Below, piece after piece: positions 60,590-62,135 of a stretch of DNA of 64,000 nt. The first letter of the stretch is position 1, and the number at the start of each line of letters is the position of its first letter. The stretch lies in the NCBI RefSeq assembly GCF_024502345.1, contig NZ_JALDNN010000001.1, one strand, 5' to 3'. Position numbers and translations under genes: made by a program. This stretch comes from Escherichia coli. GTDB taxonomy: Bacteria > Pseudomonadota > Gammaproteobacteria > Enterobacterales > Enterobacteriaceae. The notes below the pieces were generated by a model. That model searched no databases. It saw only the letters and a list, made by a program, of their open reading frames with translations, and was not told the origin of the DNA.

Positions 60590-60619
60590 AGGCAAAGAAA
60601 ACCCGGCTCTGTGGCCGGG
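60590..60619 (-). terminator. rho-independent terminator closing the cI-distal (rex-position) transcript
   Basis: Minus-strand cccggccacagagccggg followed by ttttctttg; the flanking sequence resembles the lambda region just beyond rexB. Confidence 0.65.
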
Positions 60620-60627
60620 AATAACAT

Positions 60628-61006
60628 TTAGGAATCAAGGTCAGGTAGCATGATTTTCTCAATCAACGTCAATGCCCTTTGGTCTCGTTCAGCAAAATAT
60701 TTAGGAGCGTACTGAGGCAGCCACACTTCGTTGAAGTATTGTTTGAAATCTGCAATATTCGTTTGGGTATAGACGTACCGGGAATGTCCGGCCATCTGGG
60801 TACTCATGGTTATATGTTGGGAATGTCTTCGGCTCAACCCCCCGGTTGTCACGGAGCCATTGCGAGAAAACCCTACCCTCTGAAATATCAGGGACCATTT
60901 TTTCTGGCAGCGTATATCCGGCCTGTTCAAGTGGCGCAACCAAGTTAAACGTCAGTTCATTAAGCATAGAAAAGTGCGTATGAGGAACTCTGCCTCGGTT
61001 TGTCAT
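60628..61006 (-). CDS. second gene of the rex-position cassette; either one frameshifted gene (~125 aa) or two overlapping small genes
   Basis: Frame A (61006..60701, MTNRGRVPHTHF…) and frame B (60939..60628, …KYFAERDQRALTLIEKIMLPDLDS) overlap across a C6/G6 homopolymer run at 60838..60843; both look protein-like. Confidence 0.45.
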
Positions 61007-61045
61007 ATACCGCTTAAGGTGGATAGGGAGTTCGGCAGGCGCTCT

Positions 61046-61387
61046 TTAACCTGACATCCACTCACGCACCCATCTCGATACTTGCACTGCAAATTTTGGA
61101 GATAGCCACTGAGCTAAATTAATTGCGATGTCTGGATGAACCCAAGTCCCTTGATTCTCTGCTCTTCCGCCTTTAAATGATTGAATTAACTCCGATATGG
61201 GAATCCCCATATCGCGTGATAATTCATCAAAAAAATCTTGTGTTGTTTTTAGTCGTGTATAGTCAGCAAGTAGCTTCCCCGCAGACTTGCACATCGCGGT
61301 GGCATTGATGTATCCGTCTTTGGTGCGAAGATGGATGACTTCTCCATCAACTTCTCTAGCGATTAATGCAAGTTGAAATTGTGTCAT
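61046..61387 (-). CDS. KilA-N-domain protein in the rexA position, immediately downstream of cI
   Basis: 113-aa ORF with KilA-N hallmark segments (…DGYINATAMCKSAGKLLADY… and …GTWVHPDIAINLAQWLSPKFAVQVSRWV…); 31 bp from the cI stop, same strand. Confidence 0.65.
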   Translation of the reverse strand: MTQFQLALIAREVDGEVIHLRTKDGYINATAMCKSAGKLLADYTRLKTTQDFFDELSRDMGIPISELIQSFKGGRAENQGTWVHPDIAINLAQWLSPKFAVQVSRWVREWMSG

Positions 61388-61418
61388 AAATCATCCTATT
61401 ACGTGAAAAATAAAACAA

Positions 61419-62135
<717 letters not shown>

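Follow-up and report, generated by a model that had tools for sequence, protein, structure and literature searches.

A disrupted bstA-family gene occupies the rexAB slot of a lambda-immunity prophage remnant in Escherichia coli

What takes the place of rexAB downstream of cI in a prophage whose immunity region is otherwise lambda-like? The question is posed by a 64,000-nucleotide stretch of E. coli DNA (contig NZ_JALDNN010000001.1), hereafter the window, in which the original prediction described an unrecognised pair of genes, one encoding a KilA-N domain, as a candidate lysogen-expressed defence module to which no described function could be assigned. Our analysis arrives at a different account: with a probability of about 0.87, window 60620-61417 is one known bstA-family gene that is broken and most likely non-functional here. 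We read the interval as an accessory cassette ('moron') of one gene, lying between cI and pL in a lambda-immunity prophage and consisting of a leader, the bstA-family gene and its own terminator.

One gene with two lesions in the cI-downstream slot

Alignment to phage lambda by BLASTN located both edges of the slot. From the cI stop codon through cro, window 61418-62447 corresponds to lambda 37226-38255 at 96.3% identity, and 233 of the 237 cI residues (98%) are those of lambda cI, which agrees with the near-lambda immunity region described originally. On the other side, window 60340-60619 corresponds to lambda 35550-35824 at 91.4% identity; this stretch runs from pL/oL up to the base preceding rexB and includes a pL-like promoter at 60407-60379. 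The cI stop codon and the terminator 3' of rexB are the exact points where homology ends, and lambda 35825-37225 (rexB, rexA) is swapped for window 60620-61417, placing the cassette in the rexAB slot as predicted. The window holds no counterpart of this lambda segment, and a PADLOC search of the cassette proteins gave no match to Rex. Read along the minus strand, cI is followed by a 31-nt gap, a 113-codon open reading frame (ORF), two overlapping ORFs in different frames, and a hairpin with a T-run, the last being the lambda-like terminator that had also been anticipated (Table 1). The 31-nt leader forms the upstream edge of the mobile cassette; the terminator, common to the lambda sequence 3' of rexB, forms the downstream edge, and the same hairpin lies 3' of the gene in all other contexts compared.

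Table 1 Features of the cI-downstream slot in the window and related positions in comparison loci (L numbers)
Feature	Position	Strand	Basis
cI repressor, 237 aa, lambda immunity type	61419..62132	-	ORF, lambda comparison
Leader between cI stop and bstA start, 31 nt, with Shine-Dalgarno-like AGGA	61388..61418	-	
bstA pseudogene fragment 1: codons 1-113, complete KilA-N DNA-binding domain, TAA-ended	61046..61387	-	
Premature stop TAA; GAA (Glu114) in intact alleles	61046..61048	-	alignments, allele table
The same E114 stop in comparison loci	L017:4459-4461; L020-L024:2840-2842		
bstA fragment 2: codons 115-211, original frame, interdomain linker and most of BstA_C	60756..61045	-	
2-bp deletion site: TC of intact-allele GAATATCTTGCAG missing, frame shifted	60755..60756	-	alignments
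bstA fragment 3: last 41 BstA_C codons and original stop, out of frame with fragment 2	60628..60755	-	
Intrinsic terminator CCCGGC-CACAGA-GCCGGG then TTTTCTTT	60592..60619 (hairpin and T-run 60602-60619)	-	
Lambda-like oL/pL region, left bound of slot	60340..60591	-	91.4% vs lambda 35550-35824
257-aa KilA-N/BstA_C paralogue, example (E. coli 7/2)	L005:2983-3756		
23-codon mini-ORF between repressor and bstA-like gene	about 2381-2452 in L020, L025, L028, L029, L030		

A megablast search of phage genomes identified one record covering all of 60300-62250, PhiR5_2 (PV340546.1; 97.2%), in which a single 762-nt coding sequence (CDS) 3' of cI encodes a 253-aa protein whose residues 1-113 are the window ORF. 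An uninterrupted ORF for both domains of this protein, absent from the window, is present at the same spot in PhiR5_2, ML35 and about 15 other complete E. coli genomes. Base-by-base alignment of the window with the PhiR5_2 gene uncovered four differences in total. One is a G-to-T change at nt 340 that converts codon 114 from GAA (Glu114) to TAA, and a second is a 2-bp deletion after nt 632 (TC absent between window 60756 and 60755) that shifts the last 41 codons out of frame; the other two are one synonymous and one His-to-Tyr substitution. The CDS measures 760 nt in the window against 762 nt in intact alleles.

The three window fragments match positions 6-121, 164-253 and 245-301 of the 304 positions of PHROG 6287, in order. 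For the second fragment the match reaches E 6.6e-30 (PADLOC BstA model, 4.3e-12), and for the third E 4.4e-09 (PADLOC BstA, 8e-4). Because these fragments match consecutive segments of one profile, the supposed second gene in two frames (60701..61006 and 60628..60939, which overlap inside a proposed coding unit at 60628..61006) is the C-terminal half of the same gene. The profile searches of its two frames thus recovered BstA models in both and did away with a separate gene: in place of two genes there is one bstA with a TAA at codon 114 and a 2-bp deletion. Fragment 2 would stay untranslated unless translation restarts, for which an in-frame ATG at 61006 is a candidate site. We also considered sequencing error as the source of the stop and the frameshift and ruled it out; the same 871 bp are 100% identical in 11 other independent assemblies (12 with the window), so the lesions are real.

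Assignment of the cassette to the BstA family

The 113-aa ORF is indeed a KilA-N protein by profile search (Pfam PF04383, E 1.9e-27, residues 13-112), as the original prediction had it. The gene it comes from is far from unrecognised: the intact 253-aa protein matches PHROG 6287, 'BstA abortive infection system, replication inhibitor', at E 1.8e-82 over residues 1-252, and BstA of Salmonella phage BTP1 matches the same PHROG (2.1e-150), the family having been described in PMC8585504. The PADLOC BstA model is matched by residues 120-237 of the intact protein (2.5e-20), a match that covers only about 42% of the model length. In a BLASTP comparison with BstA-BTP1 only the C domain aligns (29% identity, residues 133-251, E 5e-15), and hhalign of a 35-sequence profile against BstA-BTP1 gave 97.8% probability and E 1.1e-12 over residues 44-235. 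Precomputed Pfam annotations assign KilA-N (PF04383) and BstA_C (PF26567) to the intact protein and about 120 homologues; a Pfam-A search of the intact protein returned the KilA-N domain only, BstA_C appearing solely in the precomputed annotations. No NCBIfam model matches the intact protein, and its RefSeq name is simply 'KilA-N domain-containing protein'. The AlphaFold model (mean pLDDT 88) has two domains and a low-confidence linker at approximately residues 111-125, inside which the codon-114 stop falls.

Gene order points to the same family. The intact 253-aa gene always lies directly 3' of an S24 repressor, of which there are at least five kinds, in E. coli, Klebsiella and relatives, and it carries its own terminator in these contexts. 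In the window, 31 nt separate the cI stop from the bstA start and the terminator follows at 60602-60619, matching the published BstA layout. With architecture, homology and synteny in agreement, membership of the BstA family holds.

BstA proteins have been characterised experimentally through BstA-BTP1, BstA-Ec and BstA-Kp (Owen et al. 2021, PMC8585504), the three proteins for which abortive infection with a block of phage DNA replication has been shown (PMC8585504). Their genes lie just downstream of the cI repressor, have their own terminator and are highly expressed in lysogens; the protein localises to the replicating DNA of the incoming phage, blocks replication and causes abortive infection (PMC8585504). 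A 63-bp DNA element across the start codon, aba, which in BTP1 spans -29 to +34, protects the carrying prophage during replication (PMC8585504).

The intact 253-aa protein begins with a KilA-N/APSES DNA-binding domain, from which a flexible linker leads to BstA_C. By homology with these characterised proteins, the repressor promoter would drive its expression in lysogens. Once a phage enters, the protein would find the invader's replicating DNA and stop its replication, so that the infection aborts and the infected cell is sacrificed; a short aba DNA at the locus 5' end would spare the carrying prophage during its own replication. The cI promoter pRM would be expected to drive the downstream cassette too, judging from lambda rexAB and from BTP1 bstA, including the BTP1 transcriptomics cited in PMC8585504. 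The original proposal of a lysogen-expressed defence module was therefore right in kind, BstA being an abortive-infection family, but most likely does not hold for the broken copy in the window.

The likeness to BstA-BTP1 extends to the two-domain plan, with a KilA-N or KilA-N-like N-terminus and BstA_C, to the shared PHROG 6287, and to a gene immediately 3' of a prophage cI-type repressor with its own Rho-independent terminator. The two also differ. The PhiR5_2-type protein has 253 aa, whereas BstA-BTP1, BstA-Ec and BstA-Kp have 298-307 aa; its KilA-N domain is a canonical Pfam match that aligns to BstA-BTP1 only at profile level; its C domain is just 29% identical; and the window copy is a pseudogene, with a stop and a frameshift. 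The 253-aa subfamily is thus distant from the three tested BstA proteins, and its defence activity and aba are predictions. Among the E. coli homologues listed in the portion of Owen Table S1 available, none is 762 or 774 nt long, and we found no paper that mentions PhiR5_2 or its accession or that tests the 253-aa subfamily.

A closer relative is the 257-aa KilA-N/BstA_C paralogue WP_000200358.1 of E. coli lambdoid prophages, with 86% amino acid identity over the full length. Intact copies of this paralogue occur in 117 complete E. coli genomes; among complete genomes it is far commoner than the cI-linked copy. Unlike the window gene it lies between replication genes and the hok/nin region, not after the repressor, and it has an unrelated upstream leader.

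What remains of the gene in the window is at most a 113-aa KilA-N-only polypeptide, and BstA-type defence has most likely been lost. We read the window copy as a pseudogene because a stop follows KilA-N and a frameshift falls inside BstA_C, removing F215, F219, W223, Y231 and F232, which are invariant across 35 homologues. As a BstA it is very probably dead. Given the premature stop and the frameshift, a defence phenotype would not be expected from this copy.

Recurrence of the codon-114 stop and competing readings

How common is the broken allele? Among 5426 complete E. coli genomes, the intact lambda-linked allele is found in about 15 and the broken allele in two, one of which, strain 81, carries further indels. 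In a large assembly collection the exact 113-aa product occurs in 1969 index blocks and the exact intact protein in 924 contigs, counts that reflect clonal sampling and not independent events. All ten contigs sampled carry the identical doubly damaged 871 bp, within varied prophage backbones.

The same E114 G-to-T stop is present in three allelic backgrounds: lambda-immunity E. coli, E. coli H5 and Klebsiella prophages. The H5 and Klebsiella stop alleles are free of the 2-bp deletion. Two substitutions separate the Klebsiella stop allele from an intact one; 19-26 separate the E. coli H5 allele from all others. The nucleotide just before the mutation is T in the window lineage and C in H5 and Klebsiella; since this nucleotide differs between lineages, the stop likely has at least two independent origins. 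With 109 possible single-nucleotide nonsense changes in the ORF, the chance of such a coincidence is about 1% or less. Truncations of 69, 81, 93, 124, 144, 175/176 and 239 aa were found as well, which would be expected under ordinary decay. We also considered a conserved stand-alone 113-aa family and rejected it: a search with the 113-aa protein returned only fragments of many lengths.

The abundance of the broken allele weighs against a plain pseudogene. The recurrence of its stop in three backgrounds is unexpected for random decay and would be compatible with selection for some role of the truncated form. We take this as a modest hint, short of evidence, that truncation in the linker may be favoured, whether for a KilA-N-only product, for a two-chain BstA or for an aba-carrying immunity-only cassette. 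Put in its strongest form, the codon-114 stop would be a repeatedly selected domain-boundary truncation that keeps KilA-N and the 5' aba-like DNA and loses the killing domain, a proposal that we regard as unlikely.

The truncated cassette might itself be useful, either as a KilA-N-only, non-suicidal DNA-binding exclusion factor or as an immunity-only element. In the latter version, 5' aba-like DNA, a KilA-N-only protein or both would neutralise the cognate BstA of related prophages while avoiding the price of abortive infection. Copies of the broken allele abound in many prophage backbones, some of them apparently complete in the sampled flanks; its stop recurs exactly at the domain boundary; and its 5' end, where aba lies in BTP1, differs from intact alleles by one synonymous change only. 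These observations suit such a role, but the abundance reflects clonal sampling, other truncation lengths occur too, forms of 113 aa do not stand out among more distant relatives, and sequence search recognised no aba in the window. We therefore think a useful truncated cassette very unlikely as an explanation of the locus.

Could the split gene instead work as two chains, with BstA_C initiated separately from a 113-aa KilA-N protein, making a real two-gene defence module after all? Such a division is compatible with several features: few contacts are predicted between the two BstA domains (Owen et al., PMC8585504), the stop lies inside the low-confidence linker, it is the same stop in three allelic backgrounds, and E. 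coli H5 and Klebsiella prophages retain an undamaged BstA_C ORF downstream of the stop, itself annotated as a gene of 113 aa. Only 2-3 substitutions, however, separate the truncated alleles of Klebsiella and the window from intact ones, so that an intact C part is uninformative on selection. In the window lineage, moreover, the 2-bp deletion removes the last 41 BstA_C codons together with the five invariant aromatic residues named above, and no obvious Shine-Dalgarno sequence, as read from the window, precedes the internal ATGs. A functional split gene is highly improbable here.

A new exclusion system unrelated to known ones, the reading first given to the locus, would suit the sparse annotation (KilA-N alone in Pfam-A, no NCBIfam model, a KilA-N-only RefSeq name) and is refuted by the BstA matches in PHROG and PADLOC, by Pfam BstA_C, by homology to BstA-BTP1 and by the same synteny, which reduce its probability to almost nothing. 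We thus retain the single broken bstA-family gene as our reading of the slot.

Cassette junctions and the surrounding prophage

Replacement of rexAB by bstA fits an established pattern. The position just downstream of cI is shared by bstA and lambda rexAB, and the cI-N interval is a known mosaic hotspot (PMC8585504); the cI-to-N cassette hotspot of lambda-immunity phages was described by Degnan et al. 2007, as cited in PMC8585504. In HK97 (gp48/gp49), HK544, HK542, HK244, mEp332 and CL707, unrelated genes likewise replace rexAB next to the same conserved immunity region, in cassettes bounded by the cI stop and the terminator. Those phages carry other proteins, and among the listed records the KilA-N/BstA_C gene occurs only in PhiR5_2. 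With lambda RexA/RexB the window cassette shares the slot, from cI to the terminator before oL, and its lambda-like flanks, as well as presumed pRM transcription in the lysogen and, by analogy, a general role in abortive-infection defence. There is no sequence relationship between the two, and the systems differ in design: Rex is a two-protein sensor and membrane channel, whereas BstA acts as one DNA-binding protein that stops phage DNA from replicating.

About 45 nt upstream of the bstA ATG are conserved across at least six repressor contexts, starting at the repressor 3' end GTTTGGGTGA. The 31-nt leader within the window is where an aba self-immunity element would lie by analogy with BTP1. 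Both the leader and the start of the coding sequence are conserved along with the cassette. A search for aba found no similarity to BTP1 aba and no convincing terminal repeats, only chance-level repeats of 6-7 nt around the start codon. In all contexts the conserved block runs from the same repressor 3' end to the terminator hairpin CCCGGCCAC…GCCGGGTTTT, which is also found after lambda rexB. The cassette joints lie at window 60592-60619 and 61410-61421, and the same joints occur in L017-L030, across immunity types. These two short shared joints are plausible sites for cassette exchange by homologous recombination.

In Klebsiella-type (non-lambda) contexts the upstream junction has a further element: a hydrophobic mini-ORF of 23 codons, MREYLIVGVVTLLSVVAIVLMVA, separates the repressor from the bstA-like gene (Table 1). 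Direct repeats of the repressor 3' end GTGGCCTGATGAGNTGTTTGGGTGAT, a duplicated junction, lie on both sides of it, as if another very small cassette had entered at this point.

The surrounding prophage is a heavily deleted remnant that is missing N, replication genes and late genes, a state of decay in keeping with a bstA pseudogene. P22-type boxB sequences stand at nutL (60296-60310, minus strand) and nutR (62472-62486), yet there is no N gene. The left arm (58630-60340) contains only a DUF551 gene (59939-60232), a 114-aa ORF and an excisionase-like 66-aa ORF adjoining cscB, and no integrase was found in it. Immediately to its left lie the chromosomal sucrose genes cscA, cscK and cscB (csc operon; window 54747-58629). 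On the right side (62868-64000), cII and a 53-aa ORF run straight into a P22-type ejection protein gene that begins at about 63046. The same remnant is present in L011 at 99.98% identity. No tRNA genes were found in 50000-64000, and a search of 58.5-64 kb against Rfam gave no matches.

For annotation, these results mean that the 'KilA-N domain-containing protein' that RefSeq places beside cI is a BstA-family stump, which should be marked as a pseudogene and not counted as a defence system. The locus shows how often costly abortive-infection genes are lost, and it offers a clean example of cassette exchange in the lambdoid cI-downstream hotspot, with rexAB replaced by bstA at two short conserved junctions. 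Only the repeated domain-boundary stop hints at something beyond the known picture, the rest being already explained. If the stop did prove to be selected, what was an abortive-infection gene would now serve as an immunity-only element, as an anti-BstA element or as a non-suicidal exclusion factor, and would spread with the lambda immunity module.
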